A DNA stretch of 22,898 nucleotides. Origin: a virus. Shown piece after piece: positions 1 to 8,190 of the stretch. Location of the stretch: the UHGV virus genome UHGV-1634937; one strand, given 5' to 3'. Within the stretch, counting starts at the first letter, position 1. The number at the start of each line of letters is the position of its first letter. The translations under genes and the position numbers were made by a program. The notes under the pieces were generated by a model. That model ran no database searches and was not told the DNA's origin. It worked only from the letters and a program-made list of their open reading frames with translations.

Positions 1-97
1 TGGTGTAAAAACCAATTTTTTTCGGTGATGGACAGCGATCAAGAACGTCCTGTAATTCGTTCAACCATGCCTGTTCTTTTTTTGTCAAAGTTGCCAT
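1..97 (-). CDS. hypothetical protein, N-terminal fragment (gene continues past the left window edge)
   Basis: ATG at 97-95 preceded by AAGGA, 1 nt after the TGA stop of the 99..317 ORF; frame open to position 1 (MATLTKKEQAWLNELQDVLDRCPSPKKIGFYT...). Confidence 0.3.
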   Translation of the reverse strand, partial: MATLTKKEQAWLNELQDVLDRCPSPKKIGFYT

Positions 98-98
98 A

Positions 99-317
99 TC
101 AGTTTTCCTTATACGGATTAATTTTATTGTGCAGTGTGTTGAACGGAGCCCATACCACGTCGTTATACAATTCAATAACTGGCTCAATTATTTTTCCGAT
201 TCCCCATACCAGAATTAACGGGGATATCGGTATCATCAACACGATAAACAGAATGAGAAACAAAAATTCTGTCGCTCTACTTTTTCGCGGATATTCTTTT
301 CTGAATAATGTAGGCAC
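99..317 (-). CDS. small membrane protein (72 aa)
   Basis: GTG start 1 nt after the TGA stop of the upstream gene, with GGAGAG RBS embedded in that gene's last codons; hydrophobic stretch FLFLILFIVLMIPISPLILVWGIG. Confidence 0.4.
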   Translation of the reverse strand: MPTLFRKEYPRKSRATEFLFLILFIVLMIPISPLILVWGIGKIIEPVIELYNDVVWAPFNTLHNKINPYKEN

Positions 318-318
318 A

Positions 319-533
319 TCACTCTCCTTTGTTGCTCCTCAAAATTTTATGCCCTGGCGCAAAAGCACGCGTTTTGTCTTTGCTTATTCGCCACCCGTCT
401 TTACGGGCCTCTTTTGCACAGCCAGCCCATGACGTACCTATATACTCACCGAAGTCTGGCACTGGATATACACCTTCCGTGCACTGACGGCAGTCACAAT
501 AGAGATGCATGGTGTAACTTGCAGCGATAGCCA
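319..533 (-). CDS. small Cys-rich protein (71 aa)
   Basis: ATG at 533-531 lies 2 nt after the TGA of the 536..724 gene with GGAGAG RBS; ORF-track start at 606 would overlap the upstream gene, so the coupled start is preferred; HLYCDCRQC motif. Confidence 0.4.
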
Positions 534-535
534 TA

Positions 536-724
536 TCACTCTCCTTTAGTACGCAAGTGGTTTTTCCAGCGGTTTTGCGCCGCGCTGGGCTTTTTGCAAA
601 AACCACAATCCATCATCCCGTAATGTTTCATTAACCCCATCCGTCGGTTGCTGAGTCTCACCCACTGCCAGACGCCAGGAGCGTTTCTACGAACTAACAG
701 AATCTTTGCTTTACGGTTTTTCAT
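536..724 (-). CDS. small basic protein (62 aa)
   Basis: ATG with AGGAGA RBS 8 nt upstream; stop overlaps the RBS of the next gene; K/R-rich. Confidence 0.4.
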   Translation of the reverse strand: MKNRKAKILLVRRNAPGVWQWVRLSNRRMGLMKHYGMMDCGFCKKPSAAQNRWKNHLRTKGE

Positions 725-896
725 CGCTTTGCTCTCCTGCGTCTCTTTGCTGCTCGTCGTGCCGCTGCAATACCGGTATGGCGGCGCTTTGGTGCTGGGG
801 TGATGTTGTCAGCCATCAGGACCTGTGGCTTTGCAATTAGCGCAGAAGCCCAAAAACGAGTCGGGTACGGTAACAAGCCAATACATGCCACACGCA

Positions 897-1385
897 CTAC
901 TCACCTCCGTTGATGCGAATGCCTGTTGCAATGCTGTTTATGATGCTGTCAGTGCATGGGGTAGAAAGCTGGGCATCTCCAGCAATTTTCATGACATCAA
1001 CATCTGCATATCGAATACCGAGGTGTATCAGACCGGCTATACCTGACTTAAGCCGAGCATTTTCCATAAACAGATCCTTTGCCCGCTGTTTTTCTGCCTC
1101 AAGCTCAACGCGCAACTTCCCTACCGTTAGCGCAATATCCTCGTTCTCCTGGTCGCGGGATTTGATGTATTGCTGGTTCCTTTCCCGTTCATCCAGTAGT
1201 GCCCGCACGGTTTCTGGTCCGGCCAGAAATTTGAAGGCGTTGAGCGCATCAATATCCACACCGTAATCTTTAAGTTCCTGTTCACTTAACAAATCATCAT
1301 CAGCTGGCAACATTAACAGGCGTTCCATTGCTGGAATTGCACGTTCCGCCGCCTCACGCAGTGCCTGGTAATTAATTTCGCTCAC
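897..1385 (-). CDS. Ead/Ea22-like family protein (162 aa)
   Basis: GTG start coupled to upstream stop (CAGTGA) with AAGGAGG RBS; N-terminus xSEINYQALREAAERA resembles prophage Ead/Ea22-like proteins (from memory); coiled-coil C-terminus. Confidence 0.5.
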   Translation of the reverse strand: MSEINYQALREAAERAIPAMERLLMLPADDDLLSEQELKDYGVDIDALNAFKFLAGPETVRALLDERERNQQYIKSRDQENEDIALTVGKLRVELEAEKQRAKDLFMENARLKSGIAGLIHLGIRYADVDVMKIAGDAQLSTPCTDSIINSIATGIRINGGE

Positions 1386-2116
1386 TGGTTGCCTCCTTTG
1401 CGAAGCTGGGCAGCAAAGTCAACTAACCACTCAGTCATTTCAACCTTCCCTACCAGGTCTGAACCAGGGTGCATACAGCAATCACTCTGCGCCGCTTTGA
1501 AATCCTTATACTCATATTCTTGGGCCACCAGATTTTTTGCAGCTTCTATAGCAGCATCCACGCCCTGCGCCCGCACTTCAGCCAGGAAAGCATCGGTGGC
1601 TGGCATATTTCCTGTTGCCTTCATGGCCTCCAAAATAACCAGAACGCCATCTCGCCCAACCACCTCAGCGATAACCTCGGTGTTGTCGCCAACAACATCG
1701 CAGAATGCCTGAACTGCCTTACGAGCCAGCTCATTCTCCACTGCCAGCGCCGTGCGATTACCCTCCAGCTCTGCAATGCGCTGTTTTGCGGCATCCAGTT
1801 CAATCGACAATTTTTCCAACTGCTCTTGATGCTTCTTGTATTCCTGATATGCGTGCCAAGACTGACCTTTGCGCACACTATCAGTGATATCAGTAATCTG
1901 TTCTGGTGTTAGCGTGGTCAGTGGCTGTGATGGGAAAATAAGCACTTTCCCGGAATCCCAATCAAAACCAGCGTGAATTGACTGAACCTCAACTGAAGGT
2001 GTTGAACCAATGCTGCCAGGCGAATGAACAACGATTGTTACATCCATATCGCGACGATGGCTGTGGTTGTTGGACAAAATACGATTCACCAACTCAGAAA
2101 ATTTGGAAAATTTCAT
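1382..2116 (-). CDS. Ead/Ea22-like paralog (244 aa)
   Basis: ATG overlaps the upstream TGA (ATGA); C-terminal region (MPATDAFLAEVRAQG...AAQLRKGGNQ) is paralogous to the C-terminus of 2400..3266 (TPATDAFLSEIRAEA...AEQIRKGSSQ). Confidence 0.55.
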   Translation of the reverse strand: MKFSKFSELVNRILSNNHSHRRDMDVTIVVHSPGSIGSTPSVEVQSIHAGFDWDSGKVLIFPSQPLTTLTPEQITDITDSVRKGQSWHAYQEYKKHQEQLEKLSIELDAAKQRIAELEGNRTALAVENELARKAVQAFCDVVGDNTEVIAEVVGRDGVLVILEAMKATGNMPATDAFLAEVRAQGVDAAIEAAKNLVAQEYEYKDFKAAQSDCCMHPGSDLVGKVEMTEWLVDFAAQLRKGGNQ

Positions 2117-2403
2117 GCTGATTCCCCTTTCTCTGCTCTCTCCTGTCGGAACATCACTATCATCAGGTCGCCTTTTGTCGCTATCCTGGCTGTTGTACCT
2201 GGTTCAATGCGGCTAAGCTCAAATGCGTCATAGAACGCTTCTAATGCCTTCTGGCGTAGTTCCTGTTTGCGCCGTTTTTTCCACTGTTTTAGGAAAATGG
2301 AACCCAGCCATCGCCATGTGCGGGACATGATGTAAAGCCAACCGAGAAGTGCCAGACCGGTATTTAGGAGCGTATCGATCGTTACGGTCGTGTCGATATT
2401 CAC
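2113..2403 (-). CDS. small membrane protein (about 96 aa)
   Basis: GTG at 2403-2401 overlaps the TGA of the upstream Ea22-like gene (CAGTGA) with AAAGGAAG RBS; hydrophobic segment LLNTGLALLGWLYIM; stop overlaps the ATG of the next gene (ATGA). ORF-track start at 2436 is an alternative. Confidence 0.4.
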   Translation of the reverse strand: MNIDTTVTIDTLLNTGLALLGWLYIMSRTWRWLGSIFLKQWKKRRKQELRQKALEAFYDAFELSRIEPGTTARIATKGDLMIVMFRQERAEKGESA

Positions 2404-3266
2404 TGGCTGCTTCCTTTGCGAATCTGTTCCGCCCATTCTTCAAGGGATTTCTCCGCATATTCACCAGACAGGCCATCAATCGGATGCGCTTCATTAGCCA
2501 ACTCTTCTTTCGCTGACAAAATCATGCGTGTAACGTCGAAAACTTCACGCAAAGACTTATTGATAAATCCGTGATTGAACGCAGCAGCAAGACGGCTGGC
2601 GGTATAGTTAATCCCCTCGTTGCGTGCTTCCGCACGAATTTCAGACAGGAAAGCATCGGTGGCTGGGGTTTCGACATTAGGTCGAAGCTCATAATCACAA
2701 ACTCTTTCAATCCATGGTGATACTCTGTCGCATTTCCTCTTCTTGCGTTCACCGACCTTGGTTGCCTGCTGAATAATTACCCCCCAGCAAATGCTTTCGA
2801 CCTCTTCGCTCCATCCATCGCAAGCATCGCCTCTATAGTCGTCAATTGCAGCCTCAGCAGCAGCGATAGCCTCCTCAGCAGTTTTGTGACACTCGAAACT
2901 AAATTCAGAGCCATATGAGAAATACATAGCCCCGGCCTTCAGCGCCGCATTCTCCGCTGCCAGCGCCGCGAGATTAGTCTCAAGCTCTGCAATTCGACAC
3001 ATAGCATCAATATTTGTGTCCTCCAGGCGCTTAATTTCACCAAGCAGCTCCAGTGCAACCTTTGGGTTGAACGCGGCAACATAACGAGCGTTGTTCTCTG
3101 CATTTTTCTGTCCATCAAAGCCGGTCCATTTGATAACGTCTTCACATCGTTCATCACCGGGCGTGTGCACCGCATAAGTACCAGTATCCGTCGAAATAAA
3201 TGCGACCCATTCGTCTGGTGTTGCCTTTTCTGCCGCCTCACGCAGTACCTGATAGTCAATTGTCAT
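2400..3266 (-). CDS. Ead/Ea22-like family protein (about 288 aa)
   Basis: ATG at 3266 overlaps the TGA of the upstream gene (ATGA) and has GAAGGA RBS; N-terminus MTIDYQVLREAAEKATP parallels 897..1385; coiled-coil middle. Confidence 0.55.
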   Translation of the reverse strand: MTIDYQVLREAAEKATPDEWVAFISTDTGTYAVHTPGDERCEDVIKWTGFDGQKNAENNARYVAAFNPKVALELLGEIKRLEDTNIDAMCRIAELETNLAALAAENAALKAGAMYFSYGSEFSFECHKTAEEAIAAAEAAIDDYRGDACDGWSEEVESICWGVIIQQATKVGERKKRKCDRVSPWIERVCDYELRPNVETPATDAFLSEIRAEARNEGINYTASRLAAAFNHGFINKSLREVFDVTRMILSAKEELANEAHPIDGLSGEYAEKSLEEWAEQIRKGSSQ

Positions 3267-3908
3267 TCTCGCCATCCTTCACAGTTGTAATCACTACAGC
3301 CTTCAAAATCATATGGGCTGTACTGCCAGGTTATTTTTCCGCAATGCGGACAATTCCAACGCACCTTCCCGCTTCGCGACTTCTTTCTTCTGTTTTGCTT
3401 TTTCAACCAGTCAGGCATGACCAAACCTGCGCCCTGAACCATTGTTCTGCGGTTAAAATTATTGATATTGAACGTCCGCCGCTTTGCTGCATCGGCAATG
3501 GAAAATGGCAACCAAACTATTCCTGGTTCGTTTTTGTTGGCGACGCTAAAGATGGTTGCTTTACTGAAGTCATCGGTTGGCAATCCACCGTGTTGAAGCC
3601 AGTAAACATCGTTGCCGTTCCAGCTACCTTTTTTGTAGGCCACATACGCAGTGCAATCTGACTCAATCAGGCTTTCTGTAGGGATGTACTGGCAATCAAC
3701 GTGCCACACAGCCATTGCATCCACACTATCGGCACAAACAGGCTGATCGATATCTCGCCCACAATTCCAGGCTTTTTGGGCTTCTTCCAGCGTGTAAACA
3801 TGAGCGCGATCGATATCAGAACTGTAACCATTGCCGTTATGGCAATGGAATGAGGCGTTATTACCCACAGTTTCACGCAAACACATCATGTAAAAACGGT
3901 TGCTCACT
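3263..3908 (-). CDS. hypothetical protein with C-terminal Cys cluster (about 214 aa)
   Basis: GTG at 3908 with AAGGAGG RBS 6 nt upstream, overlapping the TGA of the 79-aa gene (GTGA); C-terminal WNCPHCGKITWQYSPYDFEGCSDYNCEGW looks zinc-ribbon-like. Confidence 0.5.
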
Positions 3909-4143
3909 GGATGCCTCCTTGGTGGAGTTGCGCTGCGATGCACGAAAAAAAAGACTCCCGAGTATGACTGTTAAGAGCTGGTGCGAACGCCTCGTTAAGA
4001 ACGGCGGCATCACAGCCGTCATCAATATAGAGCGCAATTTTTTTCTCCAGGCGCGCTTTGGCTTCCTGCAACTGCATACCCCGGCACGCACGCGGGATAT
4101 AATCAGCAATTTGAGCGATAGCTTTTTCGTTCTGTTTAAACAT
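3904..4143 (-). CDS. hypothetical protein (79 aa)
   Basis: ATG overlaps the stop of the upstream 67-aa gene; its own stop overlaps the GTG of the next gene. Confidence 0.45.
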   Translation of the reverse strand: MFKQNEKAIAQIADYIPRACRGMQLQEAKARLEKKIALYIDDGCDAAVLNEAFAPALNSHTRESFFSCIAAQLHQGGIQ

Positions 4144-4339
4144 GCTTCACCTCGATAGGCTTGATGGTGTCTAACAGCAGTCGGCGGCGCGTATTTTCTG
4201 CAAAATGGCGGCGTCCAGTTTCTTTGTGGTAAAACTCGTTTTTGCCAACGACCCACATCCGCTCTGTTTGGTGCAGTTTTTTTACCTTCGGGCCATCTTT
4301 GGTGATCACGGTACCGGTATGGGTTTTTACGATTGTCAT
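4136..4339 (-). CDS. hypothetical protein (67 aa)
   Basis: ATG with AGGTAG upstream; coupled to the downstream gene. Confidence 0.4.
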   Translation of the reverse strand: MTIVKTHTGTVITKDGPKVKKLHQTERMWVVGKNEFYHKETGRRHFAENTRRRLLLDTIKPIEVKHV

Positions 4340-4422
4340 GCCACTACCTATTCGAACAGATGAACGAGACAGGCCGATGCTCGTCCACCTGAAAAACTGA
4401 CGATTTGATGCATACTCACGGT

Positions 4423-5151
4423 TTATTCCTGAATGCGCTTAAACTCGATTACCCACACCCAGGGATTAGCGTTCCAGCTTTCTTCACCATAGATGGATTC
4501 CCACAGGCGCTGGAACGCAACCTTGGCCATTGCGAAATCCCCCTTGGGAGTAAGGAATGTTCCCGGGTGATCAGGAAGCAAACTTCCAGCAGGCGGAACG
4601 CCCTCATCCCTTGCATCGCATTCGCTGATATTGTTCAACCGCTCAACGCGCACGTTGGTAATTTCCAACAGGATGCGTGATGCCCAGCGCGGCATGTGAA
4701 TTGATGGACGCCACCCACCATCAAACTTTTCATTCACAGTGTGAGGTTTCCAGTCGGCATCATCGGGTATCGACCATAAACCGTAATCACCAGGCTTTTG
4801 CTCACAACTGGCCCGATAAATCCTTGCTGCGTTCTTCTCATCGCCACGACAAAGGTTGTCGTTCCAGTCCACACTGCAACCATCTTCATTGCCTAATATC
4901 GCCCATGTTTCACGAACCCAAATTCGATCGCCGACGATACCAAAGGGGCAATTGAAAACACTGCTTACACCATCAGCCCCGTACCACTGAAAACCTGCAC
5001 CAATTTCCCTAACCATCACTGGTGCTTCTGGACCAACTTCCGCAGGCTGATTTTTCATTATCCGCCGCGTCTGCGTTTTCCTTCCTTCGAGGATGGCTCG
5101 GACCATCTCATCGTTGAAAATCATGCCGCGCTCTTTCACTTCGCCTTTCAT
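4423..5151 (-). CDS. ASCH-domain-like protein (242 aa)
   Basis: AGGGGGA RBS before ATG at 5151; N-terminal MIFNDEMVRAILEGRKTQTRR ... GDRIWVRE resembles the ASCH/YqfB-type motif (from memory). Confidence 0.5.
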   Translation of the reverse strand: MKGEVKERGMIFNDEMVRAILEGRKTQTRRIMKNQPAEVGPEAPVMVREIGAGFQWYGADGVSSVFNCPFGIVGDRIWVRETWAILGNEDGCSVDWNDNLCRGDEKNAARIYRASCEQKPGDYGLWSIPDDADWKPHTVNEKFDGGWRPSIHMPRWASRILLEITNVRVERLNNISECDARDEGVPPAGSLLPDHPGTFLTPKGDFAMAKVAFQRLWESIYGEESWNANPWVWVIEFKRIQE

Positions 5152-5160
5152 GCATCCCCC

Positions 5161-5247
5161 TTACCCATGCGCGACGATGCCGCCAAAAGTGATAGAGAAC
5201 AGCCAGAAATAGATCGCGGCCATAATGATTTTGAATGCCGTGTTCAT
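5161..5247 (-). CDS. small hydrophobic peptide (28 aa, MNTAFKIIMAAIYFWLFSITFGGIVAHG)
   Basis: ATG at 5247 with AGGAG 8 nt upstream; TAA stop 10 nt before the ASCH gene start; below the 60-aa ORF-track cutoff. Confidence 0.35.
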   Translation of the reverse strand: MNTAFKIIMAAIYFWLFSITFGGIVAHG

Positions 5248-5274
5248 ATTTTCAGCTCCTGTGATTGATTGGAT

Positions 5275-5306
5275 ACATGCCGCGCCTTACGGCATGTTTT
5301 TATTTT
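5275..5306 (+). terminator. intrinsic-terminator-like hairpin oriented on the plus strand
   Basis: ACATGCCG / CGGCATGT 8-bp stem, 7-nt loop, followed by TTTTATTTT on the plus strand only; lies between two minus-strand genes. Confidence 0.4.
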
Positions 5307-5329
5307 CACTTTCTCTGTTTTAAAAATCA

Positions 5330-5346
5330 AGATTTATTAGAGCAAT
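5330..5346 (-). promoter_or_regulatory. C1-operator-like site (16/17 match to ATTGCTCTAATAAATTT) with overlapping promoter-like hexamers
   Basis: Minus-strand reading ATTGCTCTAATAAATCT; TTGCTC, 17-bp spacer, TAAAAC follows. Abuts the stop of the HAD-like gene. Confidence 0.5.
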
Positions 5347-5852
5347 TATTGTTGATGGAGAAGCGCGTTTTCATACTCCCTGACCATTAACGTAAGTACG
5401 CCGTGACTCCTGAAAACACGCGCCACTTCAATCTTATCTTCCAGCGCGAACGCAATTTTACTTAGACCAATTTTCTTCAGGAGATCAATCTTTGCTGGAC
5501 CGTCATTTCTGTCATCGGTGGCAGGACGCATAGATAGCAAAGGCTCCGCCCCATTTGTTACGTGCTTACGCAACCAGGCTCGTGTTTTATCCCTTGCTAT
5601 CTCACAGCGCCCGGTTACAAACCAGAGGGTGTAAATGCCGGACAACTGGCGCACCATATCAATAACTGGAGTGATGGGAGCATCAGTGTCACAGGCAAGG
5701 TTAAACTCGTTCCAGTGCTCTGTTAATGCACCTTTGCCAGGTGGTGGAAGTAAATGCAGTCTGTCTTCCGTTGCCTCTGATATCGTCCCATCAATATCTA
5801 CTATGACGATGTACGGACGTTCCTGGTGTGCGTGTTTATTGAAAATACTCAA
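5346..5852 (-). CDS. HAD-superfamily phosphatase-like protein (168 aa)
   Basis: HAD motif I DIDGT (IVIVDIDGTISE); TTG start with GAGGAGG upstream. Confidence 0.5.
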   Translation of the reverse strand: MSIFNKHAHQERPYIVIVDIDGTISEATEDRLHLLPPPGKGALTEHWNEFNLACDTDAPITPVIDMVRQLSGIYTLWFVTGRCEIARDKTRAWLRKHVTNGAEPLLSMRPATDDRNDGPAKIDLLKKIGLSKIAFALEDKIEVARVFRSHGVLTLMVREYENALLHQQ

Positions 5853-5870
5853 ATGCCCTCCTCATTGGAC

Positions 5871-5904
5871 GAAAAAAATGCTGGTGGGAGCACTCCACCA
5901 GCAT
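5871..5904 (-). terminator. intrinsic terminator (minus strand)
   Basis: ATGCTGGTGG / CCACCAGCAT 10-bp stem with GAGCACT loop; in the minus-strand RNA it is followed by UUUUUUU; sits 20 bp downstream of the 5925..7187 gene. Stem contains Chi octamers in both orientations. Confidence 0.55.
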
Positions 5905-5924
5905 TAAAAGTGACACTGTAACTA

Positions 5925-7187
5925 TCAGCGAACGTAAATAGTGCCGCCGTTCTCTTTTTCCCATGCATCGCTACGTGCATAGCAAACATCGAGAAGTCTT
6001 CTTGCCGCAGTTTCCTCTAAACCCAATTCGACAACCAACTGCTCATGACGGCGGGTAACCACATCAAACAGGGTATGCAACCCTTTAGTTGCCAGATCAT
6101 CAATGAATTCCGGTTCGAACGGCAGCTCTGTATCTGCCAACATAACCTCTTGCGCCCACTCAACTCGACGGACCAATTCCGGGCGGCGGCTTTCCATCTC
6201 TTTACAGATCAATTCATGGAAGAACTCTACCCAACCTTCCGGCTGGAACTCGCCGAAAATGGCCAGCGGCTGGAAGTTTGGCATCAACCATTCGTTGATT
6301 CGGATATCAATGGCATAGCCCATGTCGCAGCAGAACTGATAAGCAAAGTCCAGCTTAGAAACGATATAAGGACGCTCGTTATTGAACTCTTTAGGCGATG
6401 AGATCCCATAAGCCAGGAGGCGCGGGAAGAAGGAGATTTGCCCTAACGTCGGATGAAGTTTGCTTGCAGGGAAACGGCGCTCAGTAATGCCATACATTTC
6501 CTTCTTGAGCGTCGCAAATTTGGCATTCTCATTAACCAGCGCGGTAACCTCTGCTTTTTTATTAGCAAATGCCACGCGCGCTTCGCTTGCATCTTTAATA
6601 GTTTTTTTGAGCTGTTGGTTAAGGTCGGCGACCTGCTTACGCAGTTCCTGTCGCTCGCTTTTAGCTTTGTTATAGCGTTTCTCAAGGTTAAAAGGATCAA
6701 GTTTCATGATCTCTTTATATTGAGATTTTAGCGTTGAAATCTGTGAGTTCCGCAGTTCAACCATCGCGGTCATTTCATTGAGTTTTGTTTCCAGCTCAAT
6801 GCTTATACGTTCGGCATTATCAGCACGCTGGTTGGCGTCATGCGTCGCATCGTCGATCGCGTCCTGTTGCTGGCGTTTCAAATGTTCAATTTGTAGCTGA
6901 AGCTCTTCAATTTCTTTACCCTTCAGACCGAGATCCAACTGCATATTTTCAGCTGCATCTACCAGGGAGTTATGGCTATCAGCTTCTGCGTTATAAACAT
7001 CAATAAGCTGTGCGTGAAGCATCTCCGCTGACTGAACCGCATTATCAAAAAAACGTGCTGTGAGGTCATCACAACTAACGCGGCGTTGCGCGGCCCGGAT
7101 GTTCTGGATAATGGCCGGGATACCGGCATTCAGGACATCAGGGATAGATACATTTTCGATTGATTGGTTTTGTGCTGAAGTGCTCAT
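5925..7187 (-). CDS. hypothetical protein with long N-terminal coiled coil (420 aa)
   Basis: Long ORF; heptad-like charged N-terminal half (ELQLQIEHLKRQQQ..., LRKQVADLNQQLKK); no catalytic motif recognised. Confidence 0.55.
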   Translation of the reverse strand: MSTSAQNQSIENVSIPDVLNAGIPAIIQNIRAAQRRVSCDDLTARFFDNAVQSAEMLHAQLIDVYNAEADSHNSLVDAAENMQLDLGLKGKEIEELQLQIEHLKRQQQDAIDDATHDANQRADNAERISIELETKLNEMTAMVELRNSQISTLKSQYKEIMKLDPFNLEKRYNKAKSERQELRKQVADLNQQLKKTIKDASEARVAFANKKAEVTALVNENAKFATLKKEMYGITERRFPASKLHPTLGQISFFPRLLAYGISSPKEFNNERPYIVSKLDFAYQFCCDMGYAIDIRINEWLMPNFQPLAIFGEFQPEGWVEFFHELICKEMESRRPELVRRVEWAQEVMLADTELPFEPEFIDDLATKGLHTLFDVVTRRHEQLVVELGLEETAARRLLDVCYARSDAWEKENGGTIYVR

Positions 7188-7188
7188 T

Positions 7189-7407
7189 TCAAAGTTCCGT
7201 ATTAGCTTGTGCTTCGGTCATTTTTCCTAAGTATGAAGGAGGAAGGACTACGCAATTTGTATCCAGTCCCTCACCTATGGCAGCCTGTAAAATTCTGGCT
7301 AAGGTGAGTCTCTTGTTGCGATACCTGGTGATGACATGCCTGATACCGCCGGTCGGCGTAACAAAGGCGATCAGCCAGTAGTGATATTTCCGTCGGAATG
7401 GCCACAT
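7189..7407 (-). CDS. possible small ORF or untranslated leader (72 aa if translated)
   Basis: Open frame but no convincing RBS at the 7407 ATG; lies between the operator/terminator region and the 420-aa gene. Confidence 0.2.
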   Translation of the reverse strand: MWPFRRKYHYWLIAFVTPTGGIRHVITRYRNKRLTLARILQAAIGEGLDTNCVVLPPSYLGKMTEAQANTEL

Positions 7408-7421
7408 AGTGCACCCTGTAG

Positions 7422-7438
7422 ATTGCTCTAATAAAAAA
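7422..7438 (+). promoter_or_regulatory. C1-operator-like site, plus orientation (14/17)
   Basis: ATTGCTCTAATAAAAAA on the plus strand; inverted relative to the copy at 7471-7487. Confidence 0.45.
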
Positions 7439-7462
7439 CGTGATGAGTGTACATCACGTTTT
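7433..7462. terminator. bidirectional intrinsic terminator
   Basis: AAAAAA CGTGATG AGTGTA CATCACG TTTT: perfect 7-bp GC-containing stem flanked by an A-run and a T-run. Confidence 0.6.
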
Positions 7463-7470
7463 AAAAATAT

Positions 7471-7487
7471 GGAATTATTAGAGCAAT
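7471..7487 (-). promoter_or_regulatory. C1-operator-like site (14/17) with overlapping promoter-like hexamers
   Basis: Minus-strand reading ATTGCTCTAATAATTCC; TTGCTC, 17 bp, TAAAAC; 2 nt downstream of the stop of 7489..8190. Confidence 0.45.
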
Positions 7488-7488
7488 A

Positions 7489-8190
7489 TTATTCTGATTC
7501 TCGCTCAAAAAATGAGCTGATAAGGGGAAGCCAATCCTCTGACACTTCGCGAGGTCGCGGTTTGCCGTGGAAAAAGATTATTCGGCAGTCTTTTGGTAAT
7601 GCCCCATTCCCCCTGGAGTAACGCGCGCTCGCATATTTTGAACCAGGTTCCACAACATCGGCCTTGTAACTTACAAACCATCCTGGATACAGATCCTGAA
7701 ATGCTGGTGTATCATCGCCCATAACCTTTCGTAAGAACCCCTGGTCACCCCAGCACTCAGTAGTGACACAACGAGAAATCCAACCTTCCGGATCTTGCCA
7801 GAATGAACTCCAGATATGCGCTTTAACACTATTTGGTATCCACAGGGCACCGCTGCCACGATATTGTGGATGGTAAAAATCCCTAAGCATGGTGAAGCTG
7901 GTTGGTGGATGCTCTAGGATTGGGCGTATATCACCGGCAATAACCGTGTCCAAATCCAGATAGAACAGATCATCGGTTATATCCGGTCGGAACAACTCGA
8001 TTTTCGCCCACCAGCCACGGCACTTTTGCCACTGGTTGATCAATGGGACAACTTTGACGCCAGGTACATGTAAACGCTTCAGGTCTGTCAGGCAAATAAT
8101 TTCATAGCCTTTTGGCAGTTGATTAACCAGCCACTGCACATCGGAAGCGTTATAGTCACCACCAGAGCGAAAAACTAAAGCAATCTTCAT
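7489..8190 (-). CDS. putative nucleotide-sugar transferase-like protein (233 aa)
   Basis: ATG overlaps the phosphatase TGA (ATGA); WAKIELFRP ... YLDLDTV resembles a DxD-type glycosyltransferase motif (weak, by eye). Confidence 0.4.

Follow-up and report, generated by a model that had tools for sequence, protein, structure and literature searches.

PmgS, the 420-residue product of the pmgR-pmgS operon of P1-like phage-plasmids, is probably mislabelled as a head-assembly protein; the labels 'head morphogenesis', 'sheath contraction' and 'scaffold' attached to it are unsupported, and are contradicted alike by knock-outs, by virion proteomics and by the context of the wider family. The reading that we favour, as a serious possibility that stops short of being probable, is that PmgS is an early, non-virion and non-structural elongated adaptor, whose putative docking partner would be either DNA itself or a DNA- or RNA-handling protein. 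This 48-kDa protein belongs to the core set of a classic model phage, and its gene ranks with the most conserved of P1-like phage-plasmids. A lead on its function is provided by a C-terminal (HhH)2 domain, and by relatives without a PmgR match in unrelated temperate phages, where they lie in early regions devoted to recombination and methylation. As a sequence feature nothing about the locus is new, since the literature already covers the operon, its operators and the essential role of pmgR; new here are the coiled-coil and apex architecture of PmgS, its 233–350 domain, its (HhH)2 C-terminus, and the reach of the family and its early neighbourhoods beyond P1.

The window analysed here is the whole 22,898-nt stretch of the virus genome UHGV-1634937, and the region under study can be identified, with near certainty, as the pmgR-pmgS operon carried by a P1-like phage-plasmid. 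DNA identity to phage P1 is 99.3% over ~2 kb (window 5700–7700), and the P1 GenBank record AF234172 annotates the same unit, comprising Op86a/Op86b (equivalent to OpmgRa/OpmgRb), PpmgR, pmgR and pmgS. PmgR is 100% identical to its P1 counterpart, and PmgS differs from that of P1 at 3 of 420 residues; the two proteins belong to phrog_3177 (E = 4.3e-47) and phrog_1660 (E = 4.6e-195), respectively. The synteny of pmgQ, operators, pmgR, pmgS and pap is that of P1 (Punavirus), as is the predicted promoter, and no substantial difference from P1 was found within the cassette. The element departs from canonical P1 only past pap, where mosaic lambdoid/Stx-phage-like genes take the place of the pmgT-U-V region. 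The same gene pair is named shtA-shtB in P7, PmgS has served as a PCR marker for P1-like phage-plasmids, and a literature search on PmgS-like and shtB returned unrelated acronyms only. The original prediction of a unit at 7407–5925, with ORFs of 72 and 420 codons, an operator/terminator junction upstream and a strong terminator downstream, was borne out in each of these elements, which are as follows.

7471–7487, minus strand: C1 repressor operator Op86a (OpmgRa), from a consensus match and the P1 protein_bind annotation; overlaps the –35 of PpmgR
7458–7486, minus strand: PpmgR, predicted sigma-70 promoter, from P1 annotation transferred by coordinates and sequence reading
7433–7462, minus strand: hairpin (7435–7462) with an 11-bp stem and 6-nt loop, then a T-run, from an inverted repeat and the junction fold; sits between both operators
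7422–7438, plus strand: C1 repressor operator Op86b (OpmgRb), in the opposite orientation to Op86a; past the promoter and ahead of pmgR
7189–7407, minus strand: pmgR (72 aa, 8.3 kDa, pI 10.1)
5925–7187, minus strand: pmgS (420 aa, 48.3 kDa, pI 5.1, net charge –16)
6492–7067, minus strand: PmgS residues 41–232, antiparallel coiled-coil hairpin, from an AlphaFold monomer model
6138–6491, minus strand: PmgS residues 233–350, alpha/beta domain without detectable relatives, from the AlphaFold model
5952–6134, minus strand: PmgS residues about 352–412, (HhH)2 domain, from fold and sequence-profile matches
5870–5905, minus strand: intrinsic terminator closing pmgR-pmgS (stem 5905–5877, 11 pairs, 7-nt loop, then a T-run)

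The two operator matches in front of pmgR, which are predicted sites, have in common a perfect 13-bp inverted core, ATTGCTCTAATAA, and the whole window contains six C1-operator matches, compared to 0.08 expected by chance. The predicted PpmgR (–35 TTGCTC at 7486–7481, 17-nt spacer, –10 TAAAAC at 7463–7458) fits the consensus weakly (8/12), and it fell under the threshold of a consensus promoter scan. The 96-nt upstream junction folds with –26.9 kcal/mol (z = –5.7). We infer that the hairpin within it is the terminator of the upstream pmgQ operon; the predicted start of PpmgR lies inside its loop, which would make a promoter-inside-terminator. At the other end of the unit, the terminator region folds with –22.7 kcal/mol (z = –3.98), and none of 200 shuffles folds as well. 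In a lysogen, C1 bound at the two inverted operators Op86a/b would repress the weak sigma-70 promoter PpmgR, the operators bracketing the hairpin that probably ends the pmgQ operon. With the predicted start inside the loop of this hairpin, transcripts reading through from pmgQ would terminate there and those initiated at PpmgR would not. In this model, pmgR and pmgS are translationally coupled; the TGA stop of the former and the ATG of the latter are one base apart (TGAAATG), and the strong terminator closes the unit. The description of this region as a self-contained, terminator-bounded and repressor-controlled cassette agrees with the P1 annotation, and the paired-operator layout is kept in a diverged element whose PmgS is 53% identical.

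The 72-residue ORF, which had been regarded as doubtful or as a leader, is a real gene, given that PmgR homologues of 35–51% identity adjoin diverged PmgS genes, and that deletion of pmgR is published to leave heads and tails unjoined with loss of infectious particles, a defect complemented in trans (PMC9024508). Relatives of PmgR were found only in P1-like elements of about 90–100 kb, and a PmgR match was absent from the non-P1 phages that carry PmgS homologues. We consider it exceedingly improbable that the cassette is functionless, with pmgR a leader or spurious ORF and pmgS a decaying passenger. Such a reading can point to CRISPRi, which did not score pmgR as essential, and to the absence of a laboratory phenotype for pmgS; however, it is refuted by the published complementation of pmgR together with the deep conservation of both proteins, which extends down to 20–35% identity with invariant motifs, and both also keep their full length in hundreds of plasmids.

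By published genetics, an in-frame deletion of pmgS plates normally, gives normal plaques, and shows normal restriction on EcoA, EcoB and EcoK hosts, and CRISPRi knock-down resulted in an EOP of 1.2. Neither the main text of the paper on the P1 virion proteome nor the virion-protein table in it mentions PmgS, and published work on P1 states that genes 88–103 probably do not belong to 'head structure and processing'. Both pmgR and pmgS nonetheless belong to a set of 21 genes described as 'extremely conserved' across 77 P1-like phage-plasmids (PMC9603915), and plasmid records with at least 90% identity number 677 for pmgR and 682 for pmgS. A 456-aa ORF considered as a 'core gene' control for these plasmid counts is the multi-allelic helicase gene ban, and was hence unusable. 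By the conserved 21-gene set and the plasmid records, the cassette is not variable accessory cargo; PmgS itself may still have an accessory, host-takeover or anti-defence role, for which the single test on record, restriction on the EcoA, EcoB and EcoK hosts, was negative. The earlier placement of the 420-aa protein among accessory functions had been made contingent on the protein not being universally conserved with an assigned morphogenetic or replication role; the conservation was found, whereas the morphogenetic role was not, the name 'putative morphogenetic' being only nominal because the deletion plates normally.

The AlphaFold model of full-length PmgS has helices at residues 41–160 and 168–232 (mean pLDDT 86.8), which supports the original prediction of a 420-aa protein with a long coiled coil, its function not established. 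Arm 1 of the coiled coil is acidic and arm 2 basic, a complementary pattern that holds across 55 homologues, and the apex carries a conserved K-L-D-P motif (about residues 161–165), with K158, E159, L163, D164 and P165 invariant. Residues 233–350 contain the conserved motifs R-x-N-E-W-L-x-P and (H)P-x-L-x-x-R-x-E-W-A; a profile of this domain alone had no match in the PDB or Pfam, use of the whole-protein model yielded no fold match for it, and the BFVD viral fold library gave no significant match to the PmgS model. The C-terminus has the five-helix (HhH)2 fold according to its fold matches, a profile built on the family hits the N-terminal domain of RAD51 (E = 3.9e-8), and Pfam HHH_5 is matched by 16 of 55 homologues. 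Of the C-terminal part that had been described as unrecognised, residues 233–350 indeed remain so, whereas residues about 352–412 are recognizable as (HhH)2.

P1 PmgS alone produced no Pfam match, HHH_5 not being reached, and its (HhH)2 domain has a pI of 4.5 and a net charge of –8, acidic as in the whole P1 clade. The hairpins of P1 PmgS read K-G-L-H-T and L-G-L-E-E, the second being without a second G or S (G-L-E in the P1 clade); across the family, a G-h-G/S motif occurs near the C-terminus in 61 of 83 full-length homologues. The missing HHH_5 match, the charge and pI, and the G-L-E hairpin argue against simple DNA binding in P1. In addition, 28 of the 83 full-length homologues end in -AA, and a C-terminal -AA resembles the ssrA-type ClpXP degradation signal.

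As an adaptor, PmgS would consist of a stalk, namely the antiparallel coiled coil of 120 residues with its conserved basic apex, and of a foot, in which the domain without detectable relatives (233–350) is followed by the C-terminal (HhH)2 module responsible for the putative docking. Most family members have a canonical K-G-I-G-x-K-T-A hairpin in their (HhH)2 module, which is predicted to be DNA-binding. Given the acidic module and degenerate second hairpin of the P1 clade, docking onto a protein is possible there instead, as for the acidic repeats of NusA. The role would lie in intracellular transactions of phage DNA (for example recombination, replication, modification or establishment) and not in virion assembly.

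The distribution and neighbourhoods of the family are consistent with such a role. The PmgS family comprises 117 representative clusters and reaches past P1 into lambdoid-type temperate phages, and all 55 homologues tested matched phrog_1660. Single-protein scans of viral contigs found two loci for the family protein P0051 and none for P0081, and the P0051 locus had no match in complete E. coli genomes. Neighbourhoods were assessed in about 11 contexts, which do not amount to a systematic census. In phiARM81mr, the PmgS homologue lies in a leftward operon beside CI, together with genes for exoVIII, RecT, a Dam methylase and an exonuclease; the capsid/head genes are about 20 kb away. A RecT-like gene is directly upstream of the homologue at locus L006, with an integrase downstream, and at locus L012 a NinH-like gene and an RNase_T exonuclease follow it. 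Methylation genes recur as well, with a DNA methyltransferase directly downstream of the homologue in two Vibrio phages and a C5 methylase two genes upstream at locus L014. In P1, pmgS is among early accessory genes (ppp, pmgQ, pap), outside the capsid/portal/protease module. The neighbourhood evidence is not specific, since exclusion and anti-defence genes are also found in the early regions of temperate phages.

Two other readings of PmgS have to be weighed. PmgS could be a non-essential morphogenetic helper of PmgR, whether as an assembly chaperone, a scaffold-like protein or a head-completion accessory, as is implied by the labels 'putative morphogenetic function' (P1), 'ShtB sheath contraction' (P7), 'putative prohead scaffolding protein' (D6) and 'PmgS-like head morphogenesis' (PHROG 1660). 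The tight pairing of pmgS with pmgR, a morphogenetic gene, in all of the P1 and D6 lineages counts against the adaptor reading; P1-like and D6-like elements, as well as more distant ones, retain the pair, and the plasmid-record counts for the two genes are nearly the same. An acidic PmgS (pI 5.1) and a basic PmgR (pI 10.1) would also suit a complex, and scaffolds are typically elongated, acidic and helical, with none identified in P1. However, scaffolds are normally essential, whereas plaques of the pmgS deletion are normal, and the homologues without a PmgR match occur in lambda-organised phages with head modules of their own, in early operons ~20 kb from the capsid. PmgS is missing from the list of virion proteins, and neither its sequence nor its fold resembles that of a sheath, scaffold or head-completion protein. 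We rejected an identity as scaffold or head-morphogenesis protein on the normal plating of the deletion, the EOP of 1.2 and the position of the gene away from the capsid module; the tail-sheath identity of P7 ShtB was rejected on the lack of a sheath match in sequence or fold, the assignment of gp22 as the P1 sheath protein, and the absence of PmgS from the virion proteome list. On this balance, a helper role appears unlikely.

Alternatively, PmgS may be an early acidic effector of host takeover or anti-defence, the value of which is visible only in natural hosts. Its module, resembling the alpha-CTD or the acidic repeats of NusA, could attach to the RNA polymerase of the host, to NusA or to some other target, or the protein could act as an acidic DNA mimic that blocks a nuclease or an SMC-type defence. 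A predicted early promoter under C1 repression, dispensability in laboratory E. coli combined with extreme conservation in nature, and the frequent presence of orphan DNA methyltransferases, which are often antirestriction functions, as neighbours would all fit, and the -AA end of 28 of the 83 homologues would suit a tightly dosed effector, if it is a degron. Nevertheless, restriction by the EcoA, EcoB and EcoK hosts is normal in the deletion, pmgS is a core gene of uniform length, unlike the usual anti-defence gene with its variable and patchy occurrence, and toxicity or a host phenotype has not been reported. PADLOC, whose models cover defence systems only, returned no match past coiled-coil noise; its hits to LmuB, JetC and PbeC were weak, sub-threshold, confined to the coiled-coil arms, and rejected as compositional. 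We regard the effector reading as doubtful, and continue to favour the early adaptor. A wider proposal for phrog_1660 is a tentative possibility: the family, defined by its coiled-coil stalk with conserved apex, its domain without detectable relatives and its (HhH)2 module, may be an uncharacterised class of early temperate-phage factors with a new function in the establishment or recombination of phage DNA, or else in countering a host system, in which the P1 module has been converted to acidic protein docking and one third of members are dosed by ClpXP via -AA.

Phage scaffolds, invoked by the annotation of the D6 homologue, resemble PmgS in being elongated, acidic, helical and not listed in the mature virion, but PmgS is non-essential, is encoded outside the head module, and has homologues in early lambdoid-type operons. 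Like SMC, Rad50 and SbcC proteins, which it matches weakly and by composition, PmgS has a long coiled coil folded back antiparallel within one chain, with a conserved apex and, at the foot, a nucleic-acid-related module. It is without their ATPase head, Walker motifs, zinc hook and hinge, and its arm measures 120 residues compared to several hundred. An SMC/Rad50 ATPase was accordingly rejected, as NCBIfam matches reached 15–23 bits against cut-offs of 300–1000 bits and covered coiled-coil stretches only, such that the resemblance to SMC/Rad50/SbcC is one of coiled-coil architecture only. The C-terminus, finally, is of the (HhH)2 type found in the RAD51/RadA N-terminal domain, NusA AR1/AR2 and the RNA polymerase alpha-CTD, and differs from these in its partners, being joined in PmgS to a coiled coil and a domain without detectable relatives instead of a recombinase, NusA or an RNA polymerase subunit.

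The minus-strand cassette is a member of the pmgR–pmgS operon of phage P1, and every defining feature tested was found in it. Over the 2-kb cassette stretch, identity is 99.3% to P1 and 98.5% to P7 (in which the pair is named shtA and shtB); the encoded PmgR has the same sequence as in P1, and PmgS differs from P1 PmgS at 3 of 420 residues. The P1 record gives the order pmgQ, OpmgRa, PpmgR, OpmgRb, pmgR, pmgS, pap, and states that OpmgRa (formerly Op86a) "controls expression of pmgR and pmgS"; OpmgRb is Op86b. The elements in the window are as follows.

7471–7487, minus strand: C1 operator Op86a/OpmgRa, a P1 operator match
7486–7481, minus strand: −35 hexamer TTGCTC of PpmgR, transferred from the P1 annotation, within Op86a
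7463–7458, minus strand: −10 hexamer TAAAAC of PpmgR, transferred from the P1 annotation, at the 5′ foot of the hairpin
7435–7462: hairpin (inverted repeat) with an 11-bp stem, flanked by Op86a and Op86b
7422–7438, plus strand: C1 operator Op86b/OpmgRb, a P1 operator match
7407–7189, minus strand: pmgR, an ORF call of 72 aa
7187–5925, minus strand: pmgS, an ORF call of 420 aa
5905–5877, minus strand: 11-pair stem of the intrinsic terminator 3′ of pmgS, followed by a T-run (region 5870–5905; hairpin and fold)

The two genes are separated by a single base (TGAAATG). The folding energy of the terminator region is −22.7 kcal/mol (z = −3.98), with none of 200 shuffles equally stable; the upstream junction has a fold z of −5.7, and six C1 operator matches occur in the window against 0.08 expected by chance. 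The original prediction of ORFs, terminator and operators was thus structurally correct and does not reflect coincidence. Given the P1 annotation and the near-identity, the cassette is already known and annotated, an ordinary component of the P1 core genome, carried here by a P1-like variant that is not P1 itself.

Upstream of pmgR, the two operator matches share a perfect 13-bp core and are inverted relative to each other. PpmgR is a predicted sigma-70 promoter with a weak consensus match (8/12), under the threshold of the consensus scan; a start ~7 nt past the −10 hexamer would lie inside the hairpin loop. Read-through transcripts from pmgQ would consequently contain the whole hairpin and U-run and may terminate, while those started at PpmgR would carry only the 3′ arm and continue elongation, with Op86b, downstream of the predicted start, possibly serving as a second C1 site. 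This layout of paired operators and hairpin is conserved, as a P1-like contig with a 53%-identical PmgS shows: its pmgR homologue likewise lies downstream of a hairpin bracketed by two operator-like sites in inverted orientation, and a further operator follows the pap-like gene.

Other C1 operator matches were also recorded. One on the minus strand with one mismatch (5330–5346) lies just beyond the end of pap and is the counterpart of P1 Op88/OpmgT; the diverged locus L004 has an equivalent perfect operator core after its pap-like gene (8153–8165). A single match at 11095–11111 corresponds, by coordinates, to P1 Oppp (former Op83), and overlapping matches in opposite orientation at 21518–21534 (plus) and 21529–21545 (minus, a perfect 17-mer) look like a bivalent operator. 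The pap gene itself (5346–5852) has a TTG start and a strong GAGGAGG ribosome-binding site, and begins ~20 nt past the pmgS terminator; the P1 record lists no promoter for pap, leaving read-through or an unrecognised promoter as candidates for its transcription. Past pap and the Op88-like operator, window positions 1–5330 hold mosaic sequence in place of P1 pmgT–pmgU–pmgV, a region corresponding to the published "variable region H" (PMC9603915). Its best matches are lambdoid and Stx-converting phages and some P1-like variants, its genes include Ea22-like, DUF4752 and "recombinational DNA repair protein" genes, and any one phage record covers at most 52% of it. This places the cassette on the border of a region that is hypervariable among P1-like phage-plasmids.

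Published genetics bear on both genes. Among 29 P1 knock-outs of one gene each (Gonzales et al. 2022, PMC9024508), deletion of pmgR yielded no infectious virions, with accumulation of tails and incomplete heads; plaque formation was restored in trans, and lysogen-forming particles were rescued 180-fold. PmgS is absent from the main text of that study, virion proteome table included, and its authors consider that genes 88–103, formerly assigned to "head structure and processing", probably do not act there (PMC9024508). Phage with an in-frame pmgS deletion formed plaques normally and behaved normally in restriction on EcoA, EcoB and EcoK hosts; genome-wide CRISPRi also found pmgS non-essential (EOP 1.2; PMC10695390). 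Across 77 P1-like phage-plasmids, 21 genes are described as "extremely conserved", both of these included, and pmgS has served as a PCR marker (PMC9603915). In our searches, both occurred in 19/19 P1-like phage records, and plasmid records with a match of at least 90% identity numbered 677 for PmgS and 682 for PmgR. The 72-aa ORF, earlier considered doubtful, is accordingly a real and essential gene whose morphogenetic role the literature has shown, and a non-functional cassette, to which we assign next to no probability, is refuted. The same data show PmgS to be dispensable in the laboratory yet strongly conserved. The term "accessory cassette" holds for the repressor-controlled, terminator-bounded layout but not for its content, which is conserved core genes rather than variable cargo.

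What remains of interest is PmgS: this 48-kDa protein from a model phage is conserved, and its functional label is unsupported. Against Pfam, NCBIfam and PADLOC, P1 PmgS gave only sub-threshold coiled-coil matches. A first search for close relatives returned 29, and an exhaustive profile search revealed a far wider family of 117 representative clusters (83 at E ≤ 1e-10), mostly of 360–470 aa; all 55 members tested match phrog_1660, labelled "head morphogenesis". An AlphaFold model built with a 55-sequence alignment was confident (mean pLDDT 86.8) and predicts the following parts.

Residues 15–36: N-terminal helix
Residues 41–160: long helix of 120 residues
Between helices 41–160 and 168–232: invariant K-L-D-P apex, a break
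Residues 168–232: returning helix of 65 residues
Residues ~233–350: alpha/beta domain
Residues ~352–412: C-terminal five-helix domain

The first arm is acidic across the family (median charge −9; P1 −13) and the returning arm basic (median +4; P1 +7), consistent with an antiparallel hairpin. For the middle domain, no relatives were detected by sequence profile in the PDB or Pfam, nor any fold match when the whole-protein model was searched; the residues conserved in it are largely structural or hydrophobic ones (W, P, L, R), among which no catalytic constellation is obvious. The C-terminal domain reached a Foldseek TM-score of 0.80 on the target, and the family profile matched the RAD51 N-terminal domain (E = 3.9e-8) and the RNA polymerase alpha-CTD (E = 1.4e-6). 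Pfam assigned HHH_5 to 16/55 members and RNA_pol_A_CTD to 12, and the NCBI pipeline names one Citrobacter phage-plasmid homologue "alpha C-terminal domain-containing protein". Predicted fold and profile both place the C-terminus, in structural terms, in the (HhH)2 superfamily, so that the earlier description of the C-terminal domain as unrecognised stands for residues ~233–350 but not for ~352–412. PmgS has thus gained a defined architecture, in which predicted domains are backed by fold and profile matches, as well as a domain without detectable relatives and a wider early-gene family. Scaffold, sheath-protein and SMC/Rad50-ATPase readings of PmgS were rejected because the defining features tested were absent.

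The C-termini and apparent fusions of the family are of separate note. The dipeptide -AA ends 28 of 83 full-length homologues (P0041–P0134), preceded by highly divergent tails, and we take it to resemble an ssrA-type ClpXP degradation signal (a putative degron); the P1 clade instead ends in a conserved -(I/F)YVR. Three single-member proteins (P0002, P0005 and P0016) join PmgS to a DNA cytosine methyltransferase (480 aa) or metallophosphoesterase (463 aa) domain; true fusions are less likely here than artefacts of gene calling or rearrangement at P1-like plasmid edges.

PmgR relatives occur only in P1-like elements of ~90–100 kb (31% identity in D6). A marginal tblastn match to Pseudomonas phages of ~72 kb (PA26, Ab09; 33% over 60 residues, E ~2e-3, 65 records) falls on a small hypothetical ORF and may reflect either distant kinship with this head-completion protein or chance; PmgR also weakly matches phrog_7212 (E = 1.3e-5). 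PmgS relatives occur additionally in phages with no PmgR match, including Aeromonas phiARM81mr and ST4, Vibrio phages douglas 12A4 and 1F273_PE002, Pseudomonas phage 15b and several metagenomic prophages. In phiARM81mr, of lambda-like layout, the homologue lies in the leftward operon adjoining CI with exoVIII, RecT, Dam methylase and exonuclease genes, ~20 kb from the capsid gene. Elsewhere its neighbours are an upstream RecT-like gene and a following integrase (L006), a DNA methyltransferase directly 3′ (both Vibrio phages, one with YfdP/YfdQ-like genes upstream), a C5 methylase two genes upstream (L014), 3′ NinH-like and RNase_T genes with a ParA-like gene close by (L012), or HTH regulators and an integrase (L013). 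Among the non-P1 contexts examined, it never lay within a module for heads or tails; in ST4, a large terminase gene with the same orientation follows ~4 kb downstream. Four loci of D6-like and other diverged P1-like elements (L003, L004, L009 from D6, and L017) carry a giant darB-like methylase-helicase gene and a ulx-like gene a few kb upstream of pmgR–pmgS in the same orientation; in P1, darB lies elsewhere in the genome.

These neighbourhoods bear on what PmgS does. Its coupling and co-conservation with pmgR favour a non-essential assembly helper for PmgR, a role that we consider quite unlikely given the pmgS knock-out result, the virion proteome and the phages that carry PmgS with no PmgR match. 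A host-takeover or anti-defence effector is unlikely: early expression, acidity, methylase neighbours, possible degron tails and strong conservation despite laboratory dispensability favour it, but the pmgS deletion was negative in the restriction test, PADLOC models gave no match beyond sub-threshold coiled-coil ones, and PmgS behaves like a core gene. The literature shows pmgS to be dispensable and its product not to be among the listed virion proteins. We tentatively suggest, at a little under even chances, that PmgS serves phage DNA transactions as an elongated early adaptor of non-structural type, whose (HhH)2 foot would dock on DNA or on a DNA/RNA-handling protein. In the P1 clade this domain is acidic (net charge −8, pI 4.5, versus a family median of −1), and its second hairpin reads G-L-E in place of the K-G-I-G-x-K-T-A of the family; in these respects, it resembles the protein-binding acidic repeats of NusA more closely than a DNA clamp.
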